The notes under the pieces were generated by a model, which worked only from the letters and a program-made list of their open reading frames with translations, did not search any database and was not told the origin of the DNA. DNA of 64,000 nucleotides from Malacoraja senta. Lineage: Eukaryota. Position 1 is the stretch's first letter; every line of letters begins with the position of its first letter. Below, piece after piece: positions 15,325 to 50,872 of the stretch. The stretch spans positions 14,076,001 through 14,140,000 of the forward strand of contig CM075990.1 in assembly GCA_038087875.1 (NCBI GenBank), written 5' to 3'. The translations under genes and the position numbers were made by a program.

Positions 15325-16288
15325 ATGGTATTGAGAAGTTTGGCATGTCCCCAACGACTCTCACCAACTCCAACAGATGCCACGTGGAAAGCATTTTATC
15401 GGGAAGCATCAGAGCTCGGTTTGGGAACAGCTCCATCCGAGACATCAAAAAAATGGAACAAATTGTGGACGCAGCCCAGACCATCACACAAAACAACCTC
15501 CCTTCCATTGACTCCATTTATATCTCACGCTGCCTCAGCAAAGCCAACAGCATAATCACGGACGAGTCGTACCCTGGCCACTCCCTCTTCTCCCCTCTTC
15601 CATCGGGCAAAAGGTATAGAAGTGTGAAAATGCACACCACCAGATTCAGGGACTGTTTCTTCCCAGCTGTTATCAGGCAACTGAATCATCCTACCACAAC
15701 TTGAGAACAGCCCTGAACTACTATCTACCTCATTGGTTCGATCGCCCGGCGTGGGGGAGCTGACATTCCCCCGATGCGGGAGCAGGTCGCCTCGATGCGG
15801 AGGTCCAGAACGCCGCCGGCTACGGGAGTCAAGACCGTCCTGTTAACGGACGGCTCGAGGCCCCCGACCGAGGAAGAACAAAAGGAAGGACTTGAACTTT
15901 ATTTCTCCTTCCATCACAGTGAGGAATGTGTAGGAGTCACTGTGGTGGATGTTCATTTTAAAATGTGTTTTTTGAGTGATTTGTTGCTTTAAATTGTATG
16001 ACTGACCTGACCAATGAAATTCCTCGTATGTTGCAAAACATACTTGGCGAATAAAATGTGATTCTGATTCTTATTCTGATTCTGATTCTGATTGGTGACC
16101 CTCAGACTATCCTTGATTAGACTTTACTGGCTTTACTTTGCACTAAATGTTATTTCCTTATCATGTATCTGTACACTGTAAATGGATTGTAATATATATA
16201 TATATTGTCTTCCCGCTGACTGGTTAGCATGCCACAAAAGCTTTTCACTGTAGCTCGGTACACGTGACAATAAACTAAACTGAACTGA
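15325..16288 (+). mobile_element. Rex1/Babar LINE 3' fragment
   Basis: RC.VESILSG.I...FGNSS...LPSIDSIY.SRCL.KA..I..D...PGHSLFSPLPSGKRYRS...TTRFRDCFFP. The 3' UTR ends GTGACAATAAACTAAACTGAACTGA. Confidence 0.88.
15738..16090 (+). mobile_element. GC-rich non-autonomous retroposon fragment in a Rex1 3' UTR
   Basis: 6-bp TSD ATTGGT (15732-15737 and 16091-16096). The empty site CTCATTGGTGACCC is present in the related copy at ~47577-47590 (minus). (ATTCTG)n tail. Confidence 0.8.
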
Positions 16289-19265
16289 GAACCTCATGAA
16301 TCAGGAACACAAAAAGGCCTTGTATTAGCAGCAGAAAGAGTGGCCACGTCACAAACTACCCACTCACCTGCCCCATCAGCACCCTCCTGCCTCATTAGGA
16401 CAAGGGTCTGCAGGCCCCATGTTGGCCTCATCAGCACCATCAGAGATGGAGTGGGAGCGTGTCTTGCTCAATCCCTTTGGACTGCCCAAGATGAAGAAGC
16501 ACATCTCCTGTTGTTATAAACGGCAAGGTAAAATCCTGCAAGTCAGAGCACGGAGCAAACTGAATACATTTTATGAAGGAGGCCAAATTGCAAAGCTGCC
16601 ATGGTCATTGACAGTGGCTAATTTGTAAAACCACCCTACATAAGAGATCAGCAGATATTGCAGGGAATGAAAACTCATCATTAGACACACTCATGGGCAA
16701 TAATAAAATTTGTGTGTACGGTGTTAGGAATGTCATATAGGATTGGATTCAATACAGCAGGTGACTAATCACAGATGGTATCACACAAAGCACTCTTGTC
16801 TCCAGGAGCAGCTCGGCTGGCTGAGAGAGAGTGTTTACCAAGCACTCCACTTTATCTCATCTCCAGCAGCTTCTCAATCTACCCACTCCAATCCCAGGGA
16901 GGGAGAGCTCCTGCAGCAAGGGTGTAGACTGCGATGGTAATCTAATCTGGTTGCACCCGTTGTAATCAGAATTTACAGATTCAATGCCATTGAACGTGTT
17001 CAGAGCAAATGGGGGAATATTGGGCTGAGTTTGACTGGGGTCCTGATTATGTATCCTTCACTGTGGCGACGGACAGACACATTGTGCAGGTTAGTTGTGG
17101 ATGTGATGGGGAGGATCTGTGGCTGGATGTGTATATCATTCACTGAGTTGCGAGGGCAGAACTAAGGCGTATTTAGCACGCATTGTGTTTCCTATTCAGC
17201 CCGTGTCTGATAAGAGCTGAGTCTCACTCTGACAGGAGGACAATGCCCCCCGCCTGACCTCAGAGTGAACCTCTTCACTAATTCATAGCTTTGTTGCTTT
17301 GATGTTGATCCTGGGCGATCTAATCCCCCCCCCCCACCCCTCCCCCTGGCTCCCCTGCCCACCCACCCTTCTCGATTCATTCCATCACTTGATTGTCAAG
17401 CTGGACATGCATGGGGGGGTGATTGGACGGAATGTGGCAGGGTCGGGAATGGGAGTTGATGGAGGGAACCACAGACGGTGACAAAGCCAGAGCACCAGAC
17501 CCAAAGGGGGAGGGAAACGTGTCGAAGAATCAGGTCGGAAGTTCCTCCTGACATGTAGCACAATTTATTCTTGCCGAAAAGCTTGCTTCCGTCCATCTTC
17601 AAGGATCCAAAGACAGACGCAAAAAGCTGGAGTAACTCAGAGGGACAGGCAGCGTGTCTGGAGAGAAGGAATGGGTGACGTTTCGGGTCGAGACCCTTCT
17701 TCAGACTGGTTCGGGACCAGGTCCAAGTTCCCTTCCTGTGGGTGACTTGGGGGACGGGTGGGGGCGTCTCCCTCACCAATTAAATCCCGGGGAAGAACCC
17801 AATCTCACCTTGGGTCAAATCCCCACACAGCAACCGAATCAATCACATCCCCAGTCCTGCTTCCCTGTCTGCAAAGAGGCCACTGACCAACTAGGTAGAG
17901 ATGACCATTGCTGGTTTGACCCCAGTTGGCAGAGGTCATTGGCCAAAGGGGCTGTTTCCACACTATGTGCATCTATGACTCCATTAGCCCTGGTGTTGCC
18001 CACATTTCATGAATAGGTTTAAAACCTGCCTTGCGACACAACCACTTTAAAACACTTTGAGAAGAACTCTGAGACTTAAACTCCCTTAGACTCCCTTAGG
18101 TCAGAGGATGGACATGGAGTGTGGACGGGGACAGGAACCTAGCTGGATGCCCTGCAAATTGGGGTGGAAAGAGGCTGGGGTATGGGAGTTTCAGCTGCTT
18201 CTCAAAGGGTTGTCCGGCTTCTGCCTGTGGTATCAATCCCAAGGGGAAATGGTTTAGTGTAGAGATACGGTGCAGAAACAGACCGAGTCTGCACTGACCA
18301 GCGATCCCCGCACATTAACACTATCCTACACGCACTAGAGACAATTTACACTTATACCAAGTTATTTCACCTACAAACCTGTACGTTTTTGGAGTGTGGG
18401 AGGAAACTGAAGATCTCGGAAAAACCCCACGCAGTCACGGGGAGAATGTACAGACACCATAGAGACAGCACCCGTAGTCGGGGTCGAACCCGGGTCTCTG
18501 GCGCTGCAACTTTACTGCTGCGACACCATGCCGTTGTAAAGGGAGTGGGGGTTGAGGGGGAGATGGAGGAGGGTAGGAGGAGGTTATGTTGTCGGGGTTT
18601 GAGTTGAGGATAGGGTTGAAGAGGAGAATAGTGTTTGTAGATGGAATCGGGAGTTGAGGGGGGGAAGGAGACTCAGGAGGGAAAAGAGGTTGAGGGGGAA
18701 ATGAAAGGAGCTGGGATTGGGTTGAGGGGAGAGGTATGGGTGGGTTGTAGAGAGAGGGTTTGAGTAGAGAGGAGGGATTGGGGAAGGGCAGGAGAGTTAT
18801 GTCAAGTGCCCTGAAGCTAATATTTACCCCTTAGTCAATGACACTGAAACAGATCATCTTGTTATTTTCACTGCCGTCCAAATCAAGTCAAGTTGAGTTC
18901 ATTGTCATATGCACATGAGCAGTGAGATACAGGTTCAATAAAAATCTTGCTGGCAGCAGCTTTATAGGCACATAGACTCAGATAACGCACAAAAACATAC
19001 TTAACTTGCACAATAAATTCTATGTAACAGTAAAATTAAAATACTGTTGCTTTGGAGCTGGCATTAACTAGCACTGCATATATATGCCCTCCAAAAATAC
19101 TGCTCTGAATAGAATGGATAGAGTTCTGTAAAAATGTGAATCATTTATTGGTGTATGTAAAACCTATCCTGGTAGACAACCACTAGAAGGTGGCTGTACA
19201 GCACATTGCAAATCAGTAACTGTTCAGTCGGAATGCTTATCACGAGCTGGAGTCTCGTTTTTTTT

Positions 19266-19574
19266 TTAGTTTAGTTTAGAGATAAGTGTGGAAACGGGCC
19301 CTTCGGCCCTCCGAGTCCGCGCTGACCAGCGATCCTGCACAATAACACTATCCTACAGACACTAAGGACAATCTTACATTTATACCAAGTTAATTGACTG
19401 ACAAACCTGTACGTCTTCGGAGTGTGGGAGGAAACCGAAGATCTCGGAGAAAACCCATGCGGTCACGGGGAGAACGCACAAACTCCGTACAGACAGCACC
19501 CGCAGTTGGGATCGATCCAGGGTCTCTGGTGCTGTAAGTGCTGTAAGGCAACAACTCTACCGCTGTGCCACAGT
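19266..19574 (-). mobile_element. tRNA-derived V-SINE (HE1-like), near full length. Representative of at least 15 copies (e.g. ~200-345, 1381-1686, 11250-11420, 13210-13370, 14548-14705, 18252-18532, 30580-30794, 34200-34525, 38355-38638, 49645-49850, 54053-54330, 55238-55527, 61195-61445)
   Basis: A/B-box-like head (TGGCACAGCGG ... GGATCGATCCC), V-domain-like core (GGGTTTTCTCCG..TCGGTTTCCTCCCACA.TCC.AAGACGT) and CR1-like tail GGGCCGAAGGGCC.GTTTCC...(CTAAA)n. Confidence 0.85.
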
Positions 19575-21760
19575 GGAGCTGCAAGAACTTGCACAGGAAC
19601 ACTCTTCCTGCTGGGTTTGCAGCGAAGGTGCCAAGACTAAATACAAATTAATCTATCAACATGAATGAAACAGAATTGTCCCGATCTGCAGAGAGGGAGA
19701 ACATCAGGAGATGTGTTCGCTTATCAAACAGCAAATTGTTCCCAGGGACTGGAAAGGGTTAAAGAGCAAGTGTGTGCTTTTGCAAAGTTGTTTTGCTTTG
19801 TGTCCTGCCTGCCCTCGGCAGCTCACTGTGCTGGGTCTAGGTGTGCCCGTGACTGTGGAACAGGACACTCTCCCTGTACCACCCAGGACAATTAACTGCT
19901 GAGAACCAGGCTAATGACTCTCTTCCCACACACAGACCCAGGCTGGCCTGCGCTGATACTTTTACTTGTTGGCTACTCGTCCTCCCCTGGGCTTTTTCCG
20001 TCGAGGAAGTGTCTCGGAAGCCCTGGCCTTCCTGTTCACACTGTACCACACCACAAGTTCCCAGTTGGGTGTGTTTCTCTGCAGAATGCTGGCAAGGTCC
20101 AACAGCAACACTGATTAACCCTTCGCACCTCTCTTTATTGCTTTCTTCTGCACTGGTTCATTTCATTCCCACTCACTTTAGTGCCAGAGACTTGACCTGA
20201 GCCGTCATCTCTCCATGTCCCTCCATAAATACTGTCCGACCTGCTGACCTCCTTCAGTAGTTTGCCTTTAACTCACTTTAGTGCTAAACCACTGCTTCTC
20301 CCAATTCGTCAAGGAAGAGCCCTGGAGGCACAAGGAACTGCAGATCAAGAACCTCGAGCAAAACACAAAGTGCTGGAGGAACTCAGCGGGTAGGGCAGCA
20401 TCTGTGGAGCGAATGGGTGGGTGACGTTTCGAGTCAGGACCTTTCTTCAGATGGTGCCTGACCTGTTGAGTTCCACCTGGCACTTTGCTCAAGAGCTTTG
20501 GAGAGATACAGCCAAACAGCCTTAAAGGACAGAAACAGGCCCTTCAGCCCATCCAAGCCCTTGCTACCCATCTTGTACCTGTCAACAATGTATCCTGCAA
20601 AAGCAAAGAATACAGGTTTCCTCAGTCTTAAGTACTGCTCTATGCAATGCCCTGCAATTGAGCACATCTATTCATTCACCTTATTGCTAAAGGTGGGATG
20701 ATGCTGTACAACAAATGTCTGCTGCACTGGGCTGCTTAAAATTCAAGGTGAATGTAAATCACTTTGGGCACTCTGCGGTCACAAAAGACTTGGAGTCATA
20801 GAGTGATACAGTGTGGAAACAGGCCCTTCGGCCCAACTTGCCCACGTCAGCCAACATGTCCCAGCTATAAACTAATGAATGAATGAATGAATGAATAGGT
20901 TTATTGGCCAAGTATGTACACATACAAGGAATTTGCCTTGGTGCTCTGTTCGCAAGTAACAACATGACATAAAACGTCAAACATTAAAACATTAAGAATG
21001 AAACATTATAGTTTAAACATGTGAATGAAATAAAATACCAGAGCAAAAGGAGGCTACAGGCTCGTGGGAAAAAGCTGCTTTATGTCTGGCCGTGGTGGCT
21101 TTGACAGTCCAGAGTCGCCTTCCAAAATATAACTCTTATTTTAAGTGTGCTAGCTGGTTCTGCATTTTATTTTTTTTAAACTGGGTATTTCCGTGCTTTC
21201 CTCAAGGCGTGCAATCCATGGGGGCAACAAATTCCCCCACAGGATTGAAGAAGTGGCTGAGCCCTCCTGGACAAGTTTCCCAGCCTCACCACAAACCCTG
21301 AAAGCGGAAGCCAACGAGATACGGAGAATCAGACAGGAGCAGGAAGAAATAGGAAGTTCTTCAGCCATACAATGGGCTGCACAGCGACACAGGTTTCATT
21401 CTGCCTTCATAAGTTGTGTGGATTTTGCACGTTCAACCCCGTGACTATGTGGGTTCCCTATTTGTGCTCTGATTTCCTCGCACATTGCAAAGATATGCTT
21501 TGTGGCAGCTAAATGCTCATTGTTAACAGGTCCGTAATGTGTAGGTCAGTGGAAGAACATGGGGAAAGTTGATGGGAATGTGTGGAGAATAAAGGGTCCC
21601 GACCCAAAACGTCACCCATTCCTTCACTCCATAGATGCTGCCTCACCCGCTGAGTTTCTCCAGCATTTTTGTCATCCTTGAATTAATGCAGGATTAGTGT
21701 AAAAGGTATAAAAGGTTAGTGGACACTCAGTGTGGACTCTTTGTGCTGAAGAATCTGTTA

Positions 21761-22075
21761 AGGGCCTGTCCCACTTATGCAACTTTTTCGGCGACTGCAC
21801 CCATCAGAGGTCGTTGCAGGTCGCCGAAAATGTTCAACATGTTGAAAATCCAGCGGCGACCAGAACAAGGTACGACTCTTTGGGCGACTACTCACGACCA
21901 TAGAGGCTTCACCCCGCGACATGTCGGCAGTATGGTCGTGAGTCGTCTCCTAGTCACCCAAAGAGTCACAGTGTCTTTCTGGTCGCCGCTGAATTTTCAA
22001 CATGTTGAACATTTTCGGCGACCTATGACGGGTGCTGGCAGTCGCCAAAAAAGTTGCGTAAGTGGGACAGACCCT
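21761..22075. mobile_element. Palindromic Harbinger-type MITE (315 bp)
   Basis: TTA TSD at 21758-21760 and 22076-22078. TIRs AGGGCCTGTCCCACTTA / TAAGTGGGACAGACCCT. Arms of ~140 bp are imperfect inverted repeats. Confidence 0.9.
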
Positions 22076-24354
22076 TTAATGTACTGTGTTCTTCACTGCC
22101 ACTACAAAATAATACTTGATTCTTGACCAACTCCATCAAATGATCTTCATATCCTTACACCTGTTAACACTTTGTTAGATTTGTTACCTTACCCATGAAT
22201 ATATTCCATGCCGAACATCCATAGTTCTCTGGGGAAGAGGATTCCAATTTTTCACATGAGATAATTTGTGTCCATTTGAGAGGGTCTTAGTTTACCATCT
22301 CATTCACAATGTGGCACCTTCAACAGCTCAGCACTCCATCACTGGAACAAAAATGGAACACCATAAAGATATGTCTCATTTTACTCCTAAATGGGTGACC
22401 TCCCCATTATCCCAAGACAATACCACAGCTCTGAAATCCTCAGCCTAATGAAACAGCCTGTCACCAACAGCACTCATTCTTTATCCGTTTCAAAAAGATC
22501 ATTCTTCGCTTTATTTACAAGAAGAATCTGGATCAATAAGCAACTGAAAAGAAAGTTGTAAAAGCAGGTTACTAATCGCCAATTTGAGCTCTCCTCAACC
22601 AAGTTAATTAAAACATAAAGATATTCATTCTCTTGGACTGCCTCTCAGCTCATCTGCAGTAGAAAACATTGTCTGTGCCTTTGTTACTCCATATATTACT
22701 CTTCCAGCCGTATATTACTCTCATATATTACTATATACTGCCATGTATTTCTCTCCCAGCCAACCTCCCTTAAAGCCAAGACTATCCTGATATCAATGTG
22801 TCCTAACTCATTACCCCTGTGCTCTTTGAACTACACAAAGTCTAGGTTAAACAACTCGGTTTTTAAATTATTGATTTCGAATCCACTATGATCTTCCCTT
22901 TCCTATGTTTTTGACCTCCTTTGTGACCAAGAAAGTTCAACTGTAGCCTTTCACTCATCATTAAATGTAACTAATCCTTCATTAGTGACCCGGTTTCTAG
23001 CTTCTGAAAATCCTTCCTTAATCCCTTGCCTCGTTAAATCCCACCTTCTCTTTGTCCTGCCTAACACCTGGCTTGGTGCCAATTTTTGTTTGCTAATGCT
23101 GCTTGTGACATTTTATTGGTGTGTTAAAGATGTTCAATGTGGAAGACAATGTGGGATATTGACACCACTGGTGATACTGGCACTCGCTGCAATGCCATGC
23201 TTCCCTGAGAAGACAGGCAGTGGACAGCCTTCATGTACTGATTTGGTAAATCACTTTGGTGTCAACCATGTTGCCATTTTTGCCACATGTGGGCCAGATG
23301 ACAGATGTCCTTCCCTGGGGAAGATTTGTGAACCCAATGGGTCTTTGTGATGACCTGGTCGCTGCAATGTCAATTTAACTGATTTATTTTCAGATGTTTT
23401 ATAGAATTTCCAAGATGTGATTTGAACTTAAGTTCCCCTTGGTTAAACCTCCAGCCTCTCGGTTTACGAGCCAAGTAACATACCCACCTGTATCCATAGA
23501 TCCTGGCACAATCTGCAGAATCCATGTATCATGAAGAAAGTAGCTTGGAAGTATTGGAGCAGTGGAAGCTCTCCCAATGTATGAAGTTCTCAGAATCCCT
23601 GTGCATTACAGTGCTTGTGATAACATCCATTCCACAACTTAAACTTGCCCCTTGCCCTTCTGCAAACCTTCCAACAATTCCTGGCACTGTAATTTTGTAA
23701 TTCTTCCCCAACGGCCAACTATGATCAACTGTAGTCTTCTTGGAGGTTTCTTCACATGAACTCTTTCCTTTCACTCACAACTGGCCAACTGTGAACAGTT
23801 GTAACCTTGGAGGGTTCATCAAGTGAGTTCTTTGCTTTAACAGCCCACTGGCCAACTATGATCAAGTTGTATCCTATTTTGAGATTTTATTGTGTAACCT
23901 CTTTTCTTTAACTGCCCTACCTAGTCAAATGGACTTTTTCTTAGTTGAAATATTTTTTTATACCTGATGCCAGACTATTCAAGAAAATTCAAGATAATTA
24001 AGAGAAATACCATTTTTATGTGCTATTTGCTCCCTCTAATTTCACGAGACTCCTGGAGTCCTAGCAACCTCAGTTTTTATTAACAATGACTGTGTTTGTT
24101 TTAATGCACTGTTCCAAACCCACAAAGGGGTATTCCAAAAAAAATACTTGGGAATAATTAAAAAAATAGGAAATAAGAACAGTGGGTCTGGAAGCCTCTA
24201 TGGGAAGAACTTGAGTTTGGCCAGAAATCTATTCCATAAATTGTAAACAATGAATAATAATGTATTGTTGCCAGTTCCCAACTGGCCCACCCAAGCAGCT
24301 CACAGCCATCTTCTCTTGGGCAATTAAGGATGAGCAATAAATGTTGGCTGGCCT

Positions 24355-25611: not shown

Positions 25612-26379
25612 TCATGGAGATGAAAGACCTCAAAAAGAGTTGGTGCAGGACTGAGGGTAAATAGGGAATTCCAGAGCATTAAAAGCATACAATAGAACAT
25701 AAATACACCTCATCAGGAGAGAGAAACAGAGTTAACATCAGGATTGTTTTGTTAAAAAAGACACATAGTGTGGAGTAACTCAGCAGGTCAGGCAGCATCT
25801 CCGGAGAACAAGGATAGGCGACATTTTGGGTTGGGACCCTTCTTCAGGCTGATTGTAGGGGGAGGGGGAGGGGGAGGGGGAGGGGGGGAGGGGGAGGTGG
25901 GGGGGGGAGGAGGGGGAAGAAAGCTGATTGTGAGAGAATACTACAATTGTATGTGATGATTCCAGAATGAGAGATAAAGACTGAGTGAGAGAAGAAAAAT
26001 AACTGCAGAAAGTAAAAGGAACGAGGGACAATCTTTGCTTGCTTCTGGAAAGGTTTAAAAAAACTCTTGTTTACTGCTGACCTAGATCAGTCACTGAATT
26101 CACCAACCAGATAAAATATCCCCATGATCCCTTGGGCAAGATGTTTAAAGTCTGTGTGTTACATTCCATGGAGTGCTGCTTCAGGTGAGATGACAACACA
26201 CTAAATGTAGGTTGGTTAACACCTGAGCCAAATAATTGACAGGAGTAGGGCTTTCCGGTGCATTAGGTATACATATCATGATACGTCAAGCACAACATGT
26301 TGCAACATAGCTTTGGGCTATTCAGCCCATCATGCCTGTGTCGTTTTTAATAGAACTATCTAAAGAAGTCCTCCACCTC

Positions 26380-28009
26380 TTGGAAGCCTTACCCCACTAC
26401 TCAAACCTCACGCCAAAAACCTTGGCGTGATAATTGACTCAGCACTGAAATTTGACAAACAAGTCAATGCCGTGGTAAAAGCTAGCTTCTTTCAGCTTTG
26501 GACGATAGCTAAAATAAAACAATTCCTCCAGTTAGATGACCTCGAAAAGATCATCCACACATTCATCTCCTCCCGCCTAGATTACTGCAACTCCCTTTAC
26601 ACTGGCATCAGCCAATCTTCCCTGTCCCGCCTGCAACTGGTCCAAACCGCCGCAGCGAGACTCCTGACGGGCACCCGAAAAAGGGACCACATCACCCCGA
26701 TCCTGGCCTCTCTCCACTGGCTCCCTGTGCGGTTCCGTATAAACTTCAAGATCCTCCTCCATGTCTACAAAGATTAGATTAGATTAGATTAGATTCCTTT
26801 ATTTGTCATTCAGACCTTTCGGTCTGAACGAAATTTCGTTGCCTGCAGTCATACATATAATAATAAATAACAAAACACACAATAAACACAAATTAACATC
26901 CACCACCGTGAGTTCACCAGGCACCTCCTCACTGTGATGGAGGCAAAAGTCTCAAAGTCTCTGTCTCTTCCCTCTTTGTTCTCCCTCTGCGCTGAGGCGA
27001 TCCAGGCTTCTGATGTTGTGACCCCGCCGGGTGATGGTAAGTTCAGTCCCGCGGCTGAATCCGTGCTCCGCGACGGGCCGGTTCAAACTCCGCGGCCCGG
27101 GGTGGCCGAAGCTGCCGAAGCTGCCACCCTCCAGTCCAGCGGACGCAGCTGTAGTTGCGGGAGCTCCAGAAAAACAGGTCACCCACCTGTGACCTACGAG
27201 CTCCCGACGATGTCGTCCACTGGGCCAGCCGCGGCCGAGCCTCCGGATTCAGGTCGCCACCAGTGTCTTTGGTCGCCACCGCCGGAACGCCACCGCAGCC
27301 CCGAAGCCGGCCAGCCCCGCGTTGGTAAGTCCTGGCTCTGCCTCCGGAGCCTCGAGGTCGGTCGCAGTTGGAGGCCGTCAGCTCCGCCATTAGACCTCAG
27401 CACAGACGAAGGCAGAGTAGGGGGATACGACAAGAAAAAGTCGCATTCCCCCGAAGGAAGAGACAAAAATCATGTTTCACCCCCCCCCCCACACACATAC
27501 ACAACCCAATAAACTTAAATTTAACTAAAACAGGACAAAAGAAAACAATAAAAAAAGTAAAAACAGACGGACTGCAGGCGAGCCGCAGCTGTTCAACAGC
27601 GCCGCCACTTCCGGTGGGCTTGCCCCCACCTACATAAAAAGCCTTCTCACCCACCACTCCACCTCCAGGCCCCTCAGATCGGCCGACTTGGGGTTGCTGA
27701 ATATCCCACGGTCTAGGCATAAGCTCAGGGGCGACCGCGCCTTTGCGGTTGCAGCCCCTAGACTGTGGAACAGCATCCCCTTTCCCATCAGAACTGCCCC
27801 CTCCATCGACTCTTTTAAGTCAAGACTAAAGACTTATCTATACTCCCAAGCCTTTCCTGACGTCCTCTGAGTGAGGGCTACATGTATATATGTATGTAGT
27901 TTGTTTTGTTTGTGCTATTCTTATAACAAATGTAAAGCACTTTGGCCAACGAGAGTTTTTTTTAAATGTGCTATATAAATAAACGTGACTTGACTTGACT
28001 TGACTTGAC
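26380..28009 (+). mobile_element. L2 LINE 3' fragment, split by an insertion at 26773-27614
   Basis: HTFISSRLDYCNSL...RLQLVQTAAARLLTG...HITPILASLHWLPV..RINFKILL, resuming with GLAP...GDRAFAVAAPRLWNSIP...FKSRLKTYL. Tail TGTAAAGCACTTTG...AATAAA(GACTT)n. Confidence 0.92.
26773..27614 (-). mobile_element. GC-rich non-autonomous retroposon, apparently full length
   Basis: On the minus strand it starts CCGGAAGTGGCGGCGC and ends AATAAAGG(AATCT)n. It cleanly interrupts the L2 frame. No recognisable protein. Confidence 0.75.
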
Positions 28010-29962
28010 CTCTGCTTATGCTCCACAACCCTACAATACCGTTCTATTTTCAAGAGATGCTTAATTGCCTTTTAGTGAGGTTCAGTGGAATCTGCTCCAA
28101 CCTATTTTTCTGGCAGCAGGTACCAGATGTAACAACTCTCTGCTTAGGAATCTTTTTGCTTGTTTCCTCTTTGGTTCCTTGCACAATTATTTTAAGTCTG
28201 CGACATCTGGCGATCCACCCACTTTAAAAAGCTGAACAGTTCCATCCAAGATCTTTGTAATGTTGAACACCTTAAATTAGTCTCTCCCGACTTCCTCTGC
28301 TCAAAGGAGAGCGATCTTAGCGTGTCTACTGTTCCGCACTTGCAATGTGTTTCTGCATCTTTGACAAATAGTTCTGCTCTCTCGGCCCAGATCCGTTCTA
28401 AAGTATACTGGTCACATTCAGTCACAGTTCTCCAGAGCAGAGATTAGTATGGCATGGACCTTGCTTATGCATTCCATGCTTCTTTTAAAAATAAATTTAA
28501 ATATCCCACACTCTTTCCTCTCTGTCTTCTCGGGTTGCTTTGCTACCAAAGATTTGCTACAATCAACCTTGGTGGATAAACAACATTGTGTCCACGAGGA
28601 GGCTCCAAAGAGATATGGATGGGTAAGGTGAGTGGGCAAAAATCCAGCATCAGGAGGATGCAAGGAGATAGGGAGAGGTAAAGTGTGTGGGCAAAAATCA
28701 AACAACATTGAAATGTGGAAAAATATGATACCATCCAGTTTGACAGGGAAAAGAAAAGAAAGAAGCATTTTGTCTAAATGGTGAAAGATCACAAAGAAAA
28801 CTTGGTGTCATAGAGAAATATAGCATAAGGAAAGGTCAACAACGCTATGCCAACCATGGTGACGCTAATCCTTTACTTTGTTTTCTTCCCACATTTCCAT
28901 TAACTGCCCCCTTCCCACCCCCCCCACCCCCGCATCACTTGGCATGTTGGCACGTAATCGATGAGCTGAAGGGCCTACTTTCATGCTGCATCTCTAAACA
29001 CATTTTTTCTCTCAGGGCTGTGAATCTTTTGAACTCTTGCCCTCAAAGGGAAAGGTACAGTGGACGCAGAATCTTTGAATCTTTTAAAGACAGAGGGAGA
29101 TAGATTCCTGCTCAGCAAAGGGCTGAAATGTTCCTGGGGTAGACAAGCTTGTGGAGTTGAGGTTTCACACAATTTGGCCATGACGTAGGTTACTTAATGA
29201 TGCAGAAGACTTGAAGGGCCGAGTGGTTTATTCCACCTCTCCTCATTCTTGTTGGTATATTCGTACCTTTGTAAATATCTAATTTGAGAAATATTTCACG
29301 TTCTGCCAGATTGTACATGCGAGAGGCATTACCCCTACAGGCAAGAGATGCTCACTCATAAGCATTAGACACTATTCATCATCAATGGTTAATTCTGGGC
29401 TGAATACTCAAGATTATTTAACTCTCAGTAAACCCAATGTGTAGATTTGTGCTGCCAATCAACACAACGGCATGGTTGTAAGAGGTGATATACAGGTTTT
29501 TTCCCCCCTCTATAAATGCTCCCATCTGTGTTTAACATCCTGTACAGTGTGTACACAGTTTGTGATTGCATTAACCGCCATTTAGTGCTTTATAAATAAA
29601 CCCTTTGAAGAAATCTGTCCAAACACAGTGATATTTTCTGAAAAAAATTGATCATCACTTATTGTCCAAGACAAAAATAATATTTAATTTTGCTAACTAA
29701 TAGTAGAACACATATTTAGCGCCTTCATTCCAAATGAATGATTAATGGCTCTGGAAGATGGCCAAATGAAATGTAAATGTTGGTGAATATGGTCCAGACT
29801 GATAGAGTGGCAGTGTTTACATTGCAGCACCGCCTGTGTGTGTGAAATGAGGAGATCCACAAGAAGATTGATGCTTTGTGCTGGTACCGTCAAGACCTCT
29901 GCTCACCTGCGAAAACGACTCATTTCTCTGCAGCAGGGAAACATCCATTGGCAGGGGACATT

Positions 29963-32307: not shown

Positions 32308-32443
32308 TAACTGTGATCTATCCAATTTATTGGGGGGTTCCAGGAGTATGGCAGCATCAGGAAAGGTCCCTCAAGTAACTGTGATCTATCCAATTTATTG
32401 GGGGGTTCCAGGAGTATGGCAGCATCAGGAAAGGTCCCTCAAG
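32308..32443. repeat. Perfect 68-bp tandem duplication within a degenerate minisatellite (~31990-32610)
   Basis: TAACTGTGATCTATCC...GGTCCCTCAAG at 32308-32375 and 32376-32443. Confidence 0.95.
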
Positions 32444-35905: not shown

Positions 35906-36181
35906 TCACACATGCACACACGCAGGCACAAACACACTATACACTACACACACACTACACACACACACACTACACACACACACACACGCAGGCACACACA
36001 CACTATACACACATCACCCACACACACACACACTATACACACATCACCCACACACACACACACACTATACACACACACACACTATACACGCATCACCCAC
36101 ACACACACACACACACTATACACACATCACCCACACACACACACACTACACACACACACACACACACACACTACACACACA

Positions 36182-36231
<50 letters not shown>

Positions 36232-43139: not shown

Positions 43140-43425
43140 CATGTGTGCAGAGGATGATTTGGCACTTATCCTCACCGATTGTGGTCTGCTGGTCAGGAAG
43201 TCGAGGATCCATTTGCAGAGCGGTGTGCTAACTCAAAGTTCCATGAGTTTGGAGATGAGCTTAGGTGGGATAATGGTATCGAAAGCAGAGGCAGCATCTA
43301 TGTATGGTCTGACGCGGATGTCCTTCCCATCCAGGTGTTCCAGGGATGAATGAAGAGCCAGGGAGATGGCATCAGCCATGCACCTGTTGTGCTGGTAGGC
43401 GAACTGCAGTGGATCAAGGCTGCTA
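43140..43425 (-). mobile_element. Rex1-like RT fragment
   Basis: [10 protein letters not shown]...[13 protein letters not shown]...[12 protein letters not shown]. Confidence 0.8.
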
Positions 43426-44116
43426 GGTAGGCAGCATGATCTGAAGATGTTTAAATCCCACCCTGGGATGGACAATGGATGCTGGCATTGGAATTGATAA
43501 TAAGGTCATCCCCGTGACGAAGAAGTCCCTTATTCCAATTACCTATCTTCATAACTAGGCCACTGCAAAGTCTTTGATGTCCATTCCAATGGTGTAACAT
43601 CCCATATTATGGGCTAAGCTCTAACCAGTTTCTAATCAGTGGTTTATAAAGGTTTTATGCAATGTCGTCGTTTTATTGCTCAGTGTTAATAGCCCTGCTA
43701 GGATCATCATAGGGACTAATACTTAGATGTCCTCCTTGTGAGTTGCCACCGGATATTGCAGCAGGTTTAATGCCATTGAAAAAATGCTTTTGCATTCAAA
43801 ATGTTCACCTTCTCCTTGGAAGATTTGCCTGCAGCAACATTTTAAAAATAGAAGTGGCGCAAATGAGATTCGACAAGTCCCCATTCAACAGAATGATTGT
43901 AAGTTTGTGCAAGGCAATTACTGTTCTGTGTATTACATGGATCAGAATTGAGCATGTAGTGTGAATCAATACCGTGCAATGTTCTCCTCACCCAACTATG
44001 AAAGTAATGCCGAAAACCCCCCAATCTATTAGATGCTGGAATGGGAAATAAAAAGAGAAATTTAACCGTTGGTGTATCAAAATAGATTATGACATGGCCG
44101 CAAAATTCAGCAAAAA

Positions 44117-44959
44117 ATACAACATATACATCAATGCTCGTTAAATGCCAGGCATGCTTTAATACAATTTAACGTCTTACACAGATTACATTACTCCAAA
44201 ATAAAACTAAATAGAATCTTCCCACATATTTCTCCTATATGTGATAAATGCCTGCATCTAGAGGCCAATTTAACACATACTTTTGCAAATTGTATAAAAA
44301 TTAAAAATTTCTGGACTGATATTTTCGAAATAATTTCTGAAGTTGTTAATACTAAATTGGCTCCAGACTCAAAATTAATAATACTTGGGATATCAGAACA
44401 AAGTTTAACACTCACAACAAGCCAAAGAAACTTCCTCGACTACAGTATAATAACTGGGGAAAAATTAATATTAAAATTTTGGAAAGGCCCTACAACCCCC
44501 ACAATTAAAATGTGGATTGTGGAAATGTCGGAGACCCTACATCTAGAAAGAATTAGACTTGTCTTAATGGACAAGCAAGAACTTTTTGTTAAAATATGGG
44601 CTCCATTCATTACCTATTTGAAGGGATAGAGTGGCCCAGCGCGAAAACCCAACTGAAACTTGAACTCAGGATTAGATGTAAAATTATATTTCATAACCTA
44701 CGAACTTATCTCCAATGACGTATTATAAGTAACTCATTCCACCTCTTTTTCTTTTTTGATATTTGTAATTCTTCTTTCTCTCTATTTCTCTTTTTCTATC
44801 TATACAATAAAAAAAACACTAGAAGAAGAATTAATTGACAATTGACAAATTTAATAATGAATGAGTGATTGATGTATATGAAAAGGTTTTTTTTCCTATT
44901 ATAATATGTTACTCTACCTTATAATATGTTTGCTTCTAATAAAAAAATTATTAAAAATA
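44117..44959 (+). mobile_element. L1-clade LINE, 5'-truncated
   Basis: Open frame ~44126-44629: ARHALIQFNVLHRLHYSK...CDKCLHLEANLTHTFANC (CCHC knuckle)...KIWAPFITYL*. A-rich tail and 15-bp TSD AAAATTCAGCAAAAA (44102-44116 and 44960-44974). Confidence 0.9.
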
Positions 44960-45744
44960 AAAATTCAGCAAAAAGATGGTGGCATATCAAATTCATGGGT
45001 GATAGAAGTAGAATTAGGCCATTCGGCCCATCAAGTCTACTCCGCTATTCAATCATGGCTGATCTATCTCTCCCTCCTAACCTCAGTAGGGAAATATGTA
45101 AATTCAATGAATAAATTCACTATTTAGTAACCCTGAACCCTGACATCATGATCTGAAGATGTTCAAATCACACCCTGGATTAAATTTAGTGGGCAGACTA
45201 ATCTGAAGTAAAGACTGCAATCAGGAGAGGTGAATTTAAAACTACTTAAACTACATAAAAACAAATCTAGTTCCATAATGCCCTCGAGGGAAGGACTTCT
45301 GTTGTCCTCTGTATGATGCCAACCACAACACTAACTCTGAAATGCTGTCAGTTGCACCAAACATGATGCAAACATACTGGAAGAATACAACTGGCTGGAC
45401 CTGACATTGATTCAGACATGATAAAGTATTGTCCGGCCTTGTTCACTCTGCTAACTGATGTCAATCAGTCTGAAAAAGAGTCTCGACCCGAAACATCACC
45501 CACTCCTTCTCTACAGAGATGCTGCCTGTCCCGCTGAGTTACTCCAGAATGTTGTGTCTACCTCCAAGTTAGGAGAGCTGACCCAGCCAGTGATCTTACT
45601 GAACTGCCTGATATCAAATCATAGCTTTTGGGCAATGTACCATTCCATTCTTCCATCTAGATCTCTAATCAGAGGTGATGAAATAGTGGCCCCAGAGACA
45701 GAGTTCCTCAATATTGAATCTGGATCCTATGAAGTCTCAAGGCG

Positions 45745-46242
45745 AAGATAGACACAAAAAGCTGGAGTAACTCAGCGGGACAGGCAGTATCTCTGGAGAA
45801 GGATAGGGTGACGTTTCGGGTCGAGACCCTTCTTCAGACTGGTTAGGGATAAGGGAAATGAGAGATATAGACGGTGATGTGGAGAAATAAAGAACAATGA
45901 ATGAAAGATATGCAAAAAAGTAATGATGATAAAGGAAACTGCCATTGTTAGCTGTTTGTAGGGTGAAAATGAGAAGCTGGTGCGACTTGGGTGGGGGAGG
46001 GATAGAGAGAGAGGGAATACTAGGGCTACCTGGTGAGAGAAATCAATATTCATACCACTGGGCTGTAAGCTGCCCAAGCGAAATATGAGATGCTATTCCT
46101 CCAATTTGCGTTTAGCCTCACTCTGATAACGGAGGAGAACTAGGACAGAAAGGTCTGTGTAGGAATGGGAAGGAGAATGAAAATGTCCAGCAACAAGAAG
46201 ATCAGGTAGGTTCAGGTGGGCTGCGCGAAGGTGTTCCGCGAA
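45745..46242 (-). mobile_element. Penelope-like element 3' fragment: GIY-YIG endonuclease C-terminus plus 3' UTR/pLTR
   Basis: Minus strand reads FAEHLRAAHLNLPDLLVAGHFHSPSHSYTDLSVL...EAKRKLEE*HLIFRLGSLQPSGMNIDF, the typical PLE GIY-YIG tail, followed by the hammerhead-bearing repeat found throughout the window. Confidence 0.88.
45807..45840 (-). ncRNA. Minimal type I hammerhead ribozyme-like motif in Penelope 3' region
   Basis: agt-CTGAAGA-A-GGGTC-TC-GACCC-GAAA-CG-TC-acc: CUGANGA and GAAA boxes, stem II, palindromic ACGT at stem III and a UC cleavage triplet end. Stem I is very short. Confidence 0.6.
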
Positions 46243-47397
46243 GGGTCAAACACGATTAAATCGCCTGCTGATTGCCATCTACTCAGTTGATGAATCCCAA
46301 CACATTTGAAGAAGCATTAAGAAGAGACTCCAATGTGATGGAAAAAACTGTGTGAATGGATGAACCATCTTCGCTTCTACAATTATTTTCATAAAAATGA
46401 AAATTACTGAGGCAATTCACCAGTTGGGGCAGCATCTTTGGGGAACATGGATAAGTGACCCTTCTTCAGACCCGCTAAAGTACTAACCTGGAATGTCACA
46501 TATCCATGTTCTCAAGACATGCTGACTGACCCGCTGAGTTACTCCAGAGGGTCAGGTAGACATCTCATCCAAAGGGTCGGGTAGACATCTCATCCAAACA
46601 CTAATGGATGAGAGTATCCAAAAGAAATCAAAGCAAATTTTAATTCAACATTTTTTTTCCTTTGGACTAATCCTGAGGTATCAATCCTCAAATCCTGGAA
46701 GAGCAAAGGAATTCTTACAGGATGGTACCAAGGCTGTAAAGAGGAAGTGGCAGCAACATCCAAATAGCAACAGTCATTGCATTAGGTTAGACATTGCCAC
46801 CTGCAGGCGCATAGAAGTGCTGCAGGATATTTGGAAATGCTGTGAAAATATATGTCAAATGCATTCACTATCCATCACCAGAAGCAGGTCCTGTGAGTGT
46901 CTTTTTTTACACAGTTAAAGAAAAAGAAAACCACTCTGTTTATTTCAGAGGTGAAGCTACGATTTACTGAACTGAATCTCTTTGAGAGTATTTTAAAGAC
47001 AGAAGATGTCTGGGTTGTGATTGCAGCCGACAAAATATTGGTCTTCTGGAGAAAGAGGTTACGTTTAAGGTGCAGCCTTTATTTCATGGCTGGAAGGTTC
47101 TTTACTTTCTCCAACACAGGGCAAAAATCCAGATGGACATCACATTAGCAACAGAGTGATCATTTCCCCTCCTTCTGCGTTTAGACCCTTCAAGTGAATT
47201 GTTTATGAAGTTGCAGCTGAAGGTGGAATCCTGGTGGATAATGGGGAGTGACACCAACTGCACAAATCAAAGCCCATCTGTATCCGGGGCACGGCAATTA
47301 GTCACAATCACCTGTACTGGCTGTTTGACTGGTACAAATGCAACTCTCAGCCAATGAAAGATGCATTCCCTATTAGATGTGAGGCTGAGATTTTTTT

Positions 47398-47645
47398 GTT
47401 TAGTTTATTGTCACGTGTACCGAGGTACAGTGAAAAGCTTTTGTTGCGTGCTTTCCAGTTCAGCGGAAAGGCAATACATGAATACAATCGAGCCATTTAC
47501 AGTGTATAGACACATGATGAGCGAATAACGTTTAGTGCAAGGTAAAGCCAGTAAAGTCCGATCAAGGATAGTCCGAGGGTCACCAATGAGGTAGATAGTA
47601 GTTCAGGAGTGCTCTCTAGTTGTGGTAAGATGGTTCAATTGACTG
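47398..47645 (-). mobile_element. Rex1 3' UTR fragment
   Basis: Reverse complement of the 15680-16280 UTR without the nested insertion. Confidence 0.8.
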
Positions 47646-48067
47646 ATTACAACTGGGTGGATGTATCATTGTGCACATCTCTGAGCGTCTGTGTATTGGT
47701 ATCTGAGATATTATGTTTGTGTCTGAGTTTGGTCGTGTCTACAACTGTATGTGTGTTTGTGTCATGGAGTGTGTCTGACAGAGACTGTGTGGAAGATTGT
47801 GTGTCTGTGTCTGAGAGAATATATGTCTGAGATTGTGTGTGTGTGCTTGTGTCCAATTCCGTTCGGATTATTTTTCTTCTAGTTGACATTCCCTGGCCAA
47901 AGATTAATCCCCGAGAGACTGGAGACTGGAACCATTGGGAAAGTCTGTGTTGTTTAGGAAGCTGGGTGTAGGAAGTGATGAGACTCATCACTAGACCCCA
48001 CTGAATGGGATTGTAACCTGTGGTTCTCAATATGGCAAGCAGTGTTCCTGTTCACCTTTAACACACC

Positions 48068-48085
48068 AGCACCATCTGGTGGCCA
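48068..48085 (-). promoter_or_regulatory. Candidate CTCF site
   Basis: TGGCCACCAGATGGTGCT, close to the consensus TGGCCACCAG(G/A)(G/T)GGCGCT. Motif match only. Confidence 0.4.
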
Positions 48086-49864
48086 AAGATTTTGACTAGG
48101 GAACACAAAATGCTAGAGTAACCCAACGGGTCAGGAAGCATCTCTGGAGAACATGGATAGGTGATGTCTCAGGTCAGGACATGAAACAAGACCTATCCAT
48201 GTTCTCTAGAGATGCTGCCTGACCCATTGAGTTACTCTAGCATTTTGTGTCCTATTGTGTAAACCAGCATCTGTTTGTTTATTCAAACAAAAGTTCATTG
48301 TTTCTACCTTTGAAAGGCAGGGGAGTGGGAGAAAGAGCAGAGTTTGCTCTTTGTCCTTTAGACATCCGCTGTTGTAGGAGCTTAGTAGTTCAGTAAGTGT
48401 CTCTCAGTCTTTGTATCTTTGAGTGCAGGGCTTGCAGTGCAGTTGCATAAGTCTATTACATGAGGGGCAACCTTTTCACTCAGTGGGTGGTGGGTATATG
48501 GAACGAGCTGCCAGAGGAGGTAGTTAAGGCAAGTACTATAACAGCATGTGAAAAGACTCTTGGACAGGTGTATGGACAGGAAAAGGTTAGTTGACACGAG
48601 CCAAAACCAGGCAAAGGGGACCAGCTTAGATGTGATACTGGGCTCTATGAAGTGACATTGGGCTCTATGAAGTGATATGGTGAAATGGTTCCTATTTTTT
48701 CTTAATACTGATTGAGGGAGGTGGGAGTGGTATGCACGGCCAGTAGCATGCCAATCCCTTTGCCCACACACCTAGCCACATCCTCTACCAAATTCAGAAA
48801 AAAATTAAAGCAGACATGGGCTGAGCAAATCTGATTGCAACCACTTTCTTGTTTGGGCCAGTAGAGATTGAATGGCCTATCTCTGTCATTTTTGTACCGA
48901 GGACATGCTATACACAAAACATCACTGCATAATTTCACACAGGCTGAAACATACCCAGTTTATGAAATACACTTTGGACCCATGGTGCCTGCTGTATAAT
49001 TAACAGTCCGAGATTGTGCCACCTCGGTGCTGAAATTCAACACGGGAAGTAAATGGGAAAAAATTCACTCAGAGATCCAATTATCTAATGTAAATTGAAC
49101 AGGTCATCTAACCAGTGGAACGAATGTCATCACAATGATTTAACTGGGCGTAATTTAAGTAACCAAACACAGAGCGACTAGTGGCGGCCCTCAAATAATA
49201 TTTCATTAGCCACTACCCGAAACACCTTCCTGTAGTTCTGTACTCCCTCCTGCCTCGATCTTTTCCTAACCTCTGCAAGAAGACACGAGAGTGATTGAAT
49301 TAGCAATTCGATTTTCTTTAAAAGGCAAATCTATTTTCAGAACATCTCACAGGAACTAAACATACCATGAAGTACTTTTGGTGCATTGTACGGAGCATGG
49401 TAGCCAGGTTGATCACAGAAAGTTCCAAACGTCTTTTGGTGCATTGAGTGGAGGGTAAATATTGTCCAGGAACCGGCCTTTTTTTGTTACGGTATGCACT
49501 GGTATGATGCACCAACAGCGCTAGTTGGTCGTCAGCATGGACTCAATGGGCACACGGTGCCACGACATGTGTGCAGGTGTTTGTTCCAAAGACGGTACCT
49601 GTTGTTCTCACTGTGCACAGATGTTGAGCTTGAGCTGTGCAGGTCTAGTTTTTTCAGAGATACAGTGTGGAACTAGGTCCATGCCGACCATCGATCACCC
49701 ATACACTACTTTTCACATTTTTGCATCCCACACACGAGCGGCAATTTTACAGATGCCAATGAACCTACAAACCTGCACGTCTTTGCAATGTGGGAGGAAA
49801 CCGGAGCACCTGGAGAAAGCCCACAAAGGTCACAGGGGTGAACGTACACAGGTGAGTTTAGAAG

Positions 49865-50251
49865 GATGGGAGGGGATCTCATTGAAACATATAAGATTGT
49901 TAAGGGCTTGGACACGCTAGAGGCAGGAAACATGTTCCCGATGTTGGGGGAGTCCAGAACCAGGGGCCACAGTTTAAGAATAAGGAGTAAGCCATTTAGA
50001 ACGAAGACGAGGAAACACTTTTTCTCACAGAGAGTGGTGAGTCTGTGGAATTCTCTGCCTCGGAGGGCAGTGGAGGCAGGTTCTCTGGATGCTTTCAAGA
50101 GAGAGCTAGATAGGGCTCTTAAAAATAGCGGAGTCAGGGGATATGGGGAGAAGGCAGGAACGGGGTACTGATTGTGGATGATCAGCCATGATCACATTGA
50201 ATGGCGGTGCTGGCTCGAAGGGCCAAATGGCCTACTCCTGCACCTATTGTC
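49865..50251 (+). mobile_element. CR1 LINE 3' fragment inserted in a V-SINE
   Basis: GDLIETYKI...TRGHSL...FFSQRVVSLWNSLP and the CR1 3' UTR. Confidence 0.92.
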
Positions 50252-50294
50252 TAAACTCTGTACAGTAGTCAGGATCGAAACTGTTTTAACCCCA

Positions 50295-50872
50295 GTCCTA
50301 CCTGGTCGGAGATGCGTTTTTCCTCCAAATCGCATCTCCGATCTCCCCATGCGGCCTTCCATCGGGCTGGAGCGGCGTTTCCTGCCGGGGGACCACAGCT
50401 TCGGCGGCACAGCGCTGGGACACCAACAAGGAGCGGGCGATGCCTTGCCGGGTCGCCGCTCCGGAGTGCTGTGACCGCCGACCACCAACATCGAGCAGCC
50501 GCAGCCGCTCCAGACATTTCTAAGCTGCTGAGGACTTTTCCACCCGATGCGGGTGGGCCTATAATCATCGGGCTGCCGTTGTGGCGACTGGCTGCAGTGG
50601 CCTCAAACTGGCCCCGACCTCGGGTGGACTAGGAGGAGGAGGAGGAGGACTGGACATTTTGGTGCCTTCCCTCACAGTGGAGAGTGTAGATTCTACTGTG
50701 GGGGGATGTTCGTGTTGAATTTCTTATAGTGTGTTGTGTCATTTTTTTCTACCTCTTTTTATTATTTATATGGATAGTCTTCCCTGTAAAGCACTTTGGC
50801 TTTTGATTGAAATCGACTGAAAAGTGCTATATAAATAAATTTACTTTACTTTACTTTACTTAACTTTTACTT
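50295..50872 (+). mobile_element. GC-rich non-autonomous retroposon fragment with L2-like tail
   Basis: CpG-rich body, shared hairpin at 50668-50706, tail TGTAAAGCACTTTGG...GTGCTATATAAATAAA(TTACT)n. Confidence 0.7.

Follow-up and report, generated by a model that had tools for sequence, protein, structure and literature searches.

Three elements in the genome of Malacoraja senta constitute a SINE-superfamily-like group of retroposons without an RNA-derived head. These elements, E1 (15738..16090, plus strand), E2 (26773..27614, minus strand) and E3 (50295..50872, plus strand), lie in a window of 64,000 nucleotides of contig CM075990.1. We consider it probable (roughly 65%) that they are non-coding, non-autonomous retroposons of exchangeable modules, which would spread through Pol II transcription, RNA folding, target-primed reverse transcription (TPRT) and template switching. 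The proposed order of modules is a short YY1/ETS-type head, a GC-rich, base-paired and family-specific body, a core, and a LINE-derived 3' tail. The core would consist of a conserved hairpin-GGATGTT of ~50 nt lying between a purine tract and a T-rich tract; the tail would come from a Rex1-type or an L2 LINE.

Three elements and their insertion sites

The elements, stem coordinates, GGATGTT motifs, T-rich tracts and tails of the original prediction were all recovered as quoted. A two-armed hairpin pattern matched three loci in the window, namely E1, E2 and E3, and none in 100 shuffles. Core-versus-core alignments exceeded 300 of 300 shuffles in E1/E2, E1/E3 and E2/E3. The likeness of E1 and E2 is not confined to the hairpin, as had been supposed, and extends with 70.5% over 146 columns to the upstream purine tract and the downstream T-rich tract. 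The claimed dissimilarity of the bodies is nearly but not wholly complete (shuffles equalling the real score: 50/300 for E1/E2, 4/300 for E1/E3, 5/300 for E2/E3). None of the four reading frames of the elements matched Pfam, and no RT or endonuclease is encoded.

E1 and E2 are insertions within decayed LINEs. E1, which is probably 5'-truncated, sits in the 3' UTR of a Rex1-type LINE whose two halves align to an uninterrupted paralogue at 47657-47398. It is flanked by a target-site duplication of 6 nt (left 15732..15737, right 16091-16096, plus strand), which is present as a single copy in this paralogue. E2 is apparently full-length (842 nt) and lies, without a duplication, within the RT reading frame of an L2 LINE. 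The host frame is found on either side (5' half at 26364-26772; 3' half at 27615..28017, plus strand, ending in an E3-type tail), and the empty site, represented in run X1 by a loose end at 27615, indicates that 7 host nucleotides are gone. The duplication at E1, the target loss at E2 and the microsatellite ends are TPRT-type insertion signatures. E3 stands behind a CR1 3' end with an uncertain 5' boundary (50254-50295), and a search for its target-site duplication found none. Neither E1 nor E3 has a YY1/ETS head.

L2, CR1 and Rex1 are the clade names that we take to apply to the LINEs of the window. The only Pfam match among these LINE fragments was PF09004, on one fragment, and an Atlas search led to chordate clusters. 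A literature search on the PF09004 domain found nothing, and a search for the Rex1-type protein in viral contigs gave no match.

LINE-derived tails and their exchange

The tail of E1 (16010..16090, plus strand) comprises a Rex1-type stem-loop, AATAAA and (ATTCTG)n, the last detected as a tandem repeat. It matches a Rex1-type LINE end at 20942-20900 (79%; 0/300 shuffles as good). This end belongs to a truncated LINE 3' end (20880..21130, minus strand) with an E1-type tail, a UTR without the hairpin, and a C-terminal peptide match in two frames (2/1000 shuffles). The tail of E3 (50785..50872, plus strand) comprises an L2-type stem-loop, AATAAA and (TTTAC)n, and matches the end of the L2 that hosts E2 (27931-28017; 73% over 89 nt, 0/300 shuffles as good). 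The tail of E2 (26773..26850, minus strand) has an 11-bp GAAA-capped stem-loop (fold z -3.75), AATAAA and (AATCT)n. It gave no significant alignment to the four LINE tails in the window (18-19/300 shuffles as good) and is Rex1-like in architecture only. Tail mapping to LINE 3' ends of the window thus succeeded for E1 and E3 but left E2 without a significant partner. The tails had been described as three different LINE tails. They are indeed mutually unlike (28-275/300 shuffles score equally), but those of E1 and E2 share one broad Rex1 type, and therefore two LINE clades and three subfamilies are probably involved.

The same core domain carries different LINE tails in E1-E3 and also in public reads. 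In run X22 (polyA RNA), 1,348 reads contain TGGATGTT and the T-rich tract immediately before an L2 tail, a junction in which only the final 8 core nucleotides are covered, with a consensus agreement of 0.58. Runs X8 and X18 have loose ends at 26941 in which different bodies precede this hairpin core. Together these reads indicate that the modular design extends beyond the window. The tail mapping, the hairpin-free LINE UTRs and the reads from other organisms thus support the claim of modular elements that keep a conserved core and exchange their LINE partners.

The bodies could also be ordinary LINE UTRs, a case checked in the window, where the hairpin is missing from 5/5 LINE 3' UTRs. A related possibility, which we regard as unlikely, is that the elements are bipartite deletion derivatives of LINEs, with head, body and hairpin representing Rex1 or L2 UTR (5', or unsampled 3') joined to the tail, and tails being exchanged later. 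A YY1-type start with a T-rich tract behind it, as in the E2 family, may resemble LINE 5' UTRs. The hairpin-free 3' UTRs speak against such an origin, as does the fact that a single deletion cannot give one core with tails of two clades. In addition, the complementarity between the head and the region before the tail of E2 suggests evolution as a unit. For SINE bodies, excerpts of PMC5786205 propose the bipartite route and call such elements very likely Pol II transcripts. RIME, NARTc, Bov-A, WALLSI3 and RTESINE, as covered there, resemble the present elements in being non-coding, probably transcribed by Pol II, and provided with a LINE-like start and a LINE tail. Nevertheless, in these excerpts both parts come from one LINE and ORF-less bipartite elements are listed only for RTE, Ingi, Vingi and R2, whereas here the tails are of L2 and Rex1 type and neither head, body nor core could be traced to a parent. 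Deletion of LINEs would imply the same mode of movement, is compatible with the modular reading and may be its origin.

Under the modular reading, the ORF2 protein of the partner LINE would bind the tail stem-loop in trans and copy the RNA by TPRT. TPRT through recognition of the tail by ORF2 protein is established for L2 tails. According to excerpts of PMC4176376, those of ZfL2-1 and ZfL2-2 have, as here, a 3' stem-loop and a short tandem repeat, and are recognised by the cognate protein. Such stringent L2 tails account for tails only, and the core hairpin is without counterpart in the LINE UTRs tested. The junctions between modules are seen; they would be produced by template switches in the T-rich tract, giving new tails, and just upstream of the hairpin, giving new bodies.

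Folding of the elements and the core hairpin

The head of E2 (27570..27614, minus strand) consists of an ETS-like CCGGAAGT overlapping a YY1-like motif, names that we take to be appropriate. It is followed by a 5' T-rich tract (27500..27565, minus strand), with T-runs of at least four at element positions 52, 59, 70, 75 and 85, and by a GC-rich body (26945..27475, minus strand). Nested long-range helices are predicted in this body (27453-27469/26958-26974 and 27394-27411/26981-26998), with mean pair probabilities of 0.97-0.99. In helix 27394-27411, all three differences among the 40 of 293 shown change G.U to G-C. Fold z was -6.3 against global and -4.9 against 40-nt block shuffles for E2, and -8.0 and -6.4, respectively, for E3; control sequences ranged from +0.9 to -1.9 against block shuffles. 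This strong folding of E2 and E3 (z about -5 to -6, block shuffles) goes beyond the original prediction, as does a predicted pairing of the E2 head with the region before its tail. The antisense strands fold about equally well by z, as expected of any inverted complementarity.

Positions 27570-27579 in the head of E2 are complementary (10/10) to 26841-26850, just ahead of the tail. The RNA is modelled to close into a rod-like fold from which the core hairpin would branch as a side arm, leaving the stem-loop of the tail free. We considered a role for UUCG tetraloops, as CTTCGG is enriched in E2 (4 copies; 3/2000 shuffles), and dropped it because the predicted fold has no loop closed by any of these copies.

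The hairpin with GGATGTT is found at 15910..15953 in E1 (plus strand, 13 bp, P 0.98 within the whole-element fold), at 26895..26941 in E2 (minus strand) and at 50667..50710 in E3 (plus strand, 16 bp). Local folding z was -3.1, -1.8 and -4.2, respectively. The single stem mismatch of E2, at 26907, is private to this copy; the pairing base occurs in ~100% of family contigs and reads in 4/4 runs. With the family-majority base, the predicted hairpin probability is 0.99 versus 0.01 in the window copy, and the predicted pairing of head and pre-tail region rises to 0.96 versus 0.27. Across 13 hairpin pairs in the three elements, nine are invariant, two show two-sided changes, one is changed on one side and one is broken. 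Both compensatory pairs originate in E3 alone. The description of the hairpin as covarying is therefore unsupported, given that 50/500 shuffles do as well with three hairpin sequences.

These patterns bear on an alternative in which modularity is real and the core a passenger: the hairpin would be the best-kept ancestral piece, or a palindrome or binding site at the DNA level, rather than a selected RNA. Since the 26907 mismatch occurs in the window copy only, E1 and the E2 family have the same stem sequence, which favours this alternative, as do the 146-column homology of E1 and E2 and the 9/13 invariant pairs. Conversely, the arms are retained while the loops vary in length and sequence, all three stem changes of E3 preserve pairing (slid controls drop to 30-57% paired), and the core outlasts the exchange of both tail and body. 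We find the passenger alternative doubtful. Within the modular reading, we tentatively propose that the hairpin serves partner-independent folding and protein binding, nucleating the 3' domain, head-to-tail closure and presentation of the tail, a role to which we would give somewhat less than even odds.

Two other candidates for the hairpin were rejected. An ENE-like triple helix, with U-rich flanks at the hairpin base, did not hold, since the wider core folds no better than shuffles in E1 (z -0.45) and E2 (0.10), with -3.2 in E3, and the consensus fold has no lower stem. The arms hold CACAGTG and CACTGTG, as in V(D)J recombination signals, but without nonamers (best match 5/9 at 11 heptamer-like sites). 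In public collections, the hairpin pattern occurred in no viral contig, at five metagenome loci and at one prokaryote genome locus, and a 14-nt hairpin arm at 95 viral loci. These 101 outside loci were dismissed as chance because none resembles the elements beyond 24 nt.

Transcription, known counterparts and abundance

As originally predicted, there are no tRNA A/B boxes: the first 200 nt of E2 contain no A- or B-box-like match, and a tRNA search of the elements returned none. At gathering score, Rfam assigned no family to E1, E2 or E3, and at the E-value threshold E2 and E3 gave only 3 and 2 weak chance matches, with no 5S, 7SL or snRNA. There was no Rfam match to a hammerhead or HDV-type ribozyme, a search that diverged ribozymes could escape. 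E2 has 10 T-runs of at least four, the earliest at position 52 and five within 52-90. T-runs of the kind found in its 5' tract are incompatible with full-length Pol III transcription, and thus they are evidence against Pol III. Pol III SINEs of the ordinary kind whose RNA-derived head has decayed would share the design of core and exchangeable tail with CORE, V, Deu and Meta SINEs. Yet the T-runs, the length of 842 nt and the failure to match any small RNA or box make this reading very improbable.

Transcription by Pol II, the ordinary gene-type polymerase, is plausible on indirect evidence, in line with the original prediction. T-runs from +52, the YY1/ETS-type head, AATAAA and presence in polyA RNA agree with it, but a pile-up of RNA starts at the head was sought in X22 and none was seen. 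Transcription would probably proceed from the head and CpG-rich body, a step to which we assign about even odds. Most X22 reads (15,731/24,827) are less than 90% identical to E2 and therefore report its relatives, which display a canonical YY1-type motif at the head. Depth reached 1,600-5,200 at the head, compared with about 40-260 on each strand of the host L2 frame. The strand ratio fell from 12.6:1 at the head to 4.2:1 over core and tail, in a library of uncontrolled orientation in which oligo-dT could favour the A-rich antisense strand. In reads leaving the head at 27591, the loose end had a median length of 56 nt, with the 5' end of E2 only 23 nt off, and thus many begin further upstream.

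Among known systems, the HCD SINE superfamilies (CORE, V, Deu, Meta, UCON3) likewise combine one internal domain with different LINE partners, possess L2-type tails and exchange tails through chimera formation. By their descriptions they are short, with tRNA, 5S or 7SL heads bearing Pol III boxes (e.g. excerpts of PMC11481361 for bivalves, PMC7245038 for hagfish, and PMC5499810 for CmiSINE and SacSINE1). Neither trait is found here, where elements reach 842 nt and have a strongly paired body, a discrete 3'-proximal hairpin core and two Rex1-type tails. According to excerpts of PMC4844689, the bird BuceSINE and ManaSINE2 are similar in having a GC-rich 5' part of unknown origin and a LINE tail without a small-RNA head. 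They depend on AviRTE through a bipartite RTE tail and have independent origins, each within a single bird lineage; the excerpts mention neither a shared hairpin nor tail exchange across clades, both present here. Their transcription mechanism is given as not demonstrated in excerpts of PMC5786205. Coelacanth CoeG-SINEs (about 1.0-1.4 kb in excerpts of PMC4255032) are, by description, also non-coding transcribed retroposons of a fish lineage.

De novo repeat libraries usually pick up families as abundant as these, and single families are rather probably catalogued somewhere. It is quite improbable that Repbase or Dfam list them under neutral names, such as non-autonomous Rex1 or L2 or unclassified repeats, perhaps with the shared core noted, and equally so that the shared-core group has been described. 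Full-text searches of literature outside subscription journals and Repbase Reports gave no such group, and those chondrichthyan SINEs that appear in excerpts of PMC5499810 and in a table of PMC3747384 are tRNA-headed. An undescribed superfamily of Pol II RNA parasites without small-RNA ancestry, distinct from LINE deletions and defined by rod-like RNAs folded end to end and a partner-independent hairpin module around which bodies and tails (Rex1-type, L2) are exchanged, is conceivable, though we lean against it. If true, it would be a Pol II counterpart of conserved-domain SINE superfamilies and provide a testable structure for a conserved SINE-type core. The group bears on two questions, the role of conserved SINE bodies and the transcription of GC-rich-headed SINEs. 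For retrotransposition assays, it offers a short folded core, a possible promoter of YY1/ETS type and naturally occurring variants with swapped tails. It also suggests that Rex1-type LINEs carry non-autonomous partners.

In public reads, the E2 family is very abundant in at least two organisms, without steep 5' decay. This apparently abundant, transcribed and CpG-rich repeat class may introduce promoter-like sequence, as well as sequence for double-stranded RNA, throughout these genomes. Summed contig depth over E2, which is not a copy number, had a median of 8.6e5 versus 20.5 on the unique flank in run X1, and of 2.7e5 versus 36.6 in run X8. In both runs the 5' half was close to the 3' half. 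Depth was found in every bin in 4/4 runs, indicating a uniform many-copy structure for the E2 family only, and in X8 and X18 it was highest at the hairpin bin.

Three retroposed inserts with a common core

The GC-rich non-autonomous retroposons E1 (15738-16090, + strand), E2 (26773-27614, - strand) and E3 (about 50295-50872, + strand, with an uncertain 5' end) are CpG-rich, with observed/expected ratios of 1.03, 0.92 and 0.81, respectively, versus 0.38 for the whole window. They lie in vertebrate-type DNA full of SINE fragments and decayed LINEs, the latter presumably of the CR1, L2 and Rex1 clades; one LINE peptide belongs to chordate clusters with PF09004.

The two-armed hairpin pattern matched only these three elements in the window, with no match in 100 shuffles. 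Each pairwise alignment of the cores (the ~50-nt hairpin and GGATGTT) scored above 300 of 300 shuffles, while the tails gave no alignment with one another against 300 shuffles. Body alignments were equalled by 50, 4 and 5 of 300 shuffles; the dissimilar bodies originally described are thus better called unrelated or nearly so. The predicted hairpin core is indeed common to all three, but the part common to E1 and E2 is wider than first described, as these two are alike around the hairpin (70.5% over 146 columns). E1 has two small CGATGCG-centred hairpin motifs (15770-15803) and E3 has one (50543-50556), a hint that their bodies are distantly related.

E1 sits inside a Rex1-type 3' UTR, and comparison with the uninterrupted paralogue at 47657-47398 reveals a 6-nt duplication. 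E2 splits an L2 reading frame; its empty site, given by contigs of the public run X1, indicates that 7 host bases were lost without duplication. A target-site duplication was sought at E3, where the 5' end is uncertain, and none was found. All three 3' ends carry AATAAA and a short tandem repeat, and none of the four element reading frames had a Pfam match. E1, E2 and E3 are retroposed inserts.

LINE partners, family size and module exchange

The E1 tail matches a LINE end at 20942-20900 (0/300 shuffles), and two frames of that LINE fragment encode a C-terminal peptide of Rex1 type (2/1000 against one reference, 22/1000 against the other). The tail of E3 aligns with an L2 end at 27931-28017 (0/300). 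The layout of the E2 tail (TTTC, stem-loop, TGACAATAAA) is that of Rex1-type tails at 16266 and 34025; no partner LINE was assigned to it because its alignments to LINE tails in the window were not significant (18/300 and 19/300). Hence, the three LINE-like tails first proposed hold by LINE match for E1 (Rex1-type) and E3 (L2), and for E2 as Rex1-type by layout alone. The sections consulted of PMC4176376 describe strict recognition of such tail stem-loops by zebrafish L2 proteins. The element would be mobilised in trans via its tail. The core hairpin was absent from all five LINE 3' UTRs tested in the window.

Evidence from outside the window came from aligning four public runs (X1, X8, X18 and X22) to E2 and its flanks; X22 is a polyA RNA run, about 6% of which was read. 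Part of E2 is present in 20 runs from 10 studies and six organisms, six of these runs holding small shares only. Summed contig depth, taken as the median of 14 bins across E2, was 8.6e5 in X1 (20.5 on unique flank) and 2.7e5 in X8 (36.6 on unique flank). This depth is no copy number, but it suggests that copies run into the thousands at least. E2 relatives are abundant and transcribed.

Modules have been exchanged. Depth in X1 was 8.3e5 over the 5' half of E2, close to the 1.16e6 of the 3' half; in X8 and X18, the bin with the hairpin was the deepest. In these two runs, loose ends at 26941 lead into other sequence upstream of this same core. In X22, TGGATGTT and a T-rich tract immediately precede the L2 tail in 1,348 reads, with TGGATGTT nearer the tail than in E3. 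This supports a core and L2-tail family independent of E3, of which only the last 8 core nucleotides are visible (agreement 0.58). These junctions bear out the modular group with tail exchange, which may have arisen by template switches in the tracts on either side of the core. A further 1,162 X22 reads, at 27964, have no more than the final portion of the L2 tail in common and contain a different stem-loop (agreement 0.96); they represent a separate L2-tailed family that is also abundantly transcribed and adds to the depth over the tail.

We conclude that E1-E3 form a real, abundant and modular group of non-autonomous retroposons. Its exchange of tails about a conserved domain is already familiar; what is unusual is the lack of a Pol III head, together with the YY1/ETS start, the predicted end-to-end fold and the use of Rex1-type partners. 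In the parts consulted of PMC11481361, PMC7245038 and PMC5499810, conserved-domain SINE superfamilies use several LINE partners. The present group likewise combines one core with several partners but, unlike those superfamilies, lacks the defining RNA-derived Pol III head. Bird SINEs with GC-rich heads are known on AviRTE (PMC4844689, in part), and the relevant portion of PMC5786205 gives ORF-less bipartite LINE derivatives for RTE, Ingi, Vingi and R2 only. The group is not described in the consulted portions of a Rex review (PMC6274825), a SINE/LINE review (PMC3747384) and a coelacanth paper (PMC4255032). Nor did we find a description in the full-text literature, a scope outside which lie Repbase, Dfam and subscription journals.

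Transcription, hairpin and predicted fold

Transcription by Pol III is unlikely, because E1-E3 contain no tRNA or Rfam family, the first 200 nt of E2 hold no box-like match, in keeping with the reported lack of tRNA A/B boxes, and T-runs start at position 52 of E2. The 5' start of E2 displays what we take to be an ETS-like motif with an overlapping YY1-like one, and its X22 relatives have a canonical YY1-type motif at the head. X22 depth was 1,600-5,200 over the head, 260-500 over the body and about 40-260 per strand over the host L2 frame, with strand ratios of 12.6 (head), 2.5 (body) and 4.2 (core plus tail). Given usual library chemistry, the majority strand is the element sense strand, in a run without an orientation control. 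A simple internal promoter is disfavoured by this lack of control, by the absence of a start pile-up at E2 in X22, by loose ends with a median of 56 nt where only 23 nt of E2 remain, and by low read identity (15,731 of 24,827 reads below 90%). The proposed Pol II drive therefore keeps the head motifs and missing Pol III signs in its favour and has the start data against it; we give Pol II transcription from the head an even chance.

The 13 stem pairs of the three hairpins comprise nine invariant, two changed on both sides, one changed on one side and one broken, a pattern equalled by 50 of 500 shuffles. The broken pair (26907) is private to this E2 copy, since about 100% of aligned sequence in all four runs carries the pairing base. 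Thus, E1 and E2-family stems are identical, and E3 is the source of every change that keeps pairing. The covariation first claimed is reduced to agreement with a conserved hairpin, with selection on pairing not proven. A folding or protein-binding role is a tentative, somewhat doubtful suggestion. Searches of viral, metagenome and prokaryote collections for further hairpin copies gave chance matches only. The hairpin arms of E1-E3 also include a V(D)J heptamer paired with its complement in the other arm, inward-facing and 14-19 nt apart, with no nonamers found beside them; at high copy number these amount to many cryptic heptamers.

Against 40-nt block shuffles, predicted folding is far beyond chance for the body of E2 (z -4.9, 0/25) and for E3 (z -6.4, 0/25); E1 scored -2.1 (1/25), and four control sequences +0.9 to -1.9. 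Antisense strands scored similarly. For E2, nested long-range helices across 400-520 nt are predicted with pair probabilities of 0.97-0.99, and the head is complementary to the region just before the tail at 10 of 10 positions. Among 40 listed of 293 differences, the three that fall in one long-range helix all replace a G.U pair by G-C, as do four of five T-to-C differences against a baseline of 27/110 (P 0.015), and three others break predicted pairs. The core hairpin of this copy is predicted to be outcompeted (P 0.01); the family-majority base would raise it to 0.99 and the pairing of head with pre-tail region from 0.27 to 0.96. The RNA may thus take a closed rod-like fold.

Other features of the window

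A terminal exon of 80 codons that follows a splice acceptor (58871-59113, - strand; motif LKKSHSSPSL), which had no Pfam or Atlas match, presumably resembles the C-terminus of PSD/EFA6 ARF-GEFs; all three retroposons lie downstream of it. A non-LTR element has left two 3' fragments that are 97% identical (3532-4212 and 10501-11091); they encode a peptide without a Pfam match, which seems to be a restriction-like endonuclease end. A 178-codon frame (44093-44629, + strand), also without a Pfam match, seems to us to resemble the C-terminal part of L1/Tx1 ORF2. A perfect 68-nt tandem duplication (32308-32443) is a recent event or an assembly artefact. A CpG-rich palindromic element of ~310 nt with terminal inverted repeats (21760-22075) is MITE-like, and a DNA transposon fragment (62085-63693), presumably Tc1-like, has 213-nt inverted repeats 97% identical and a transposase-like frame at 62468-62833.
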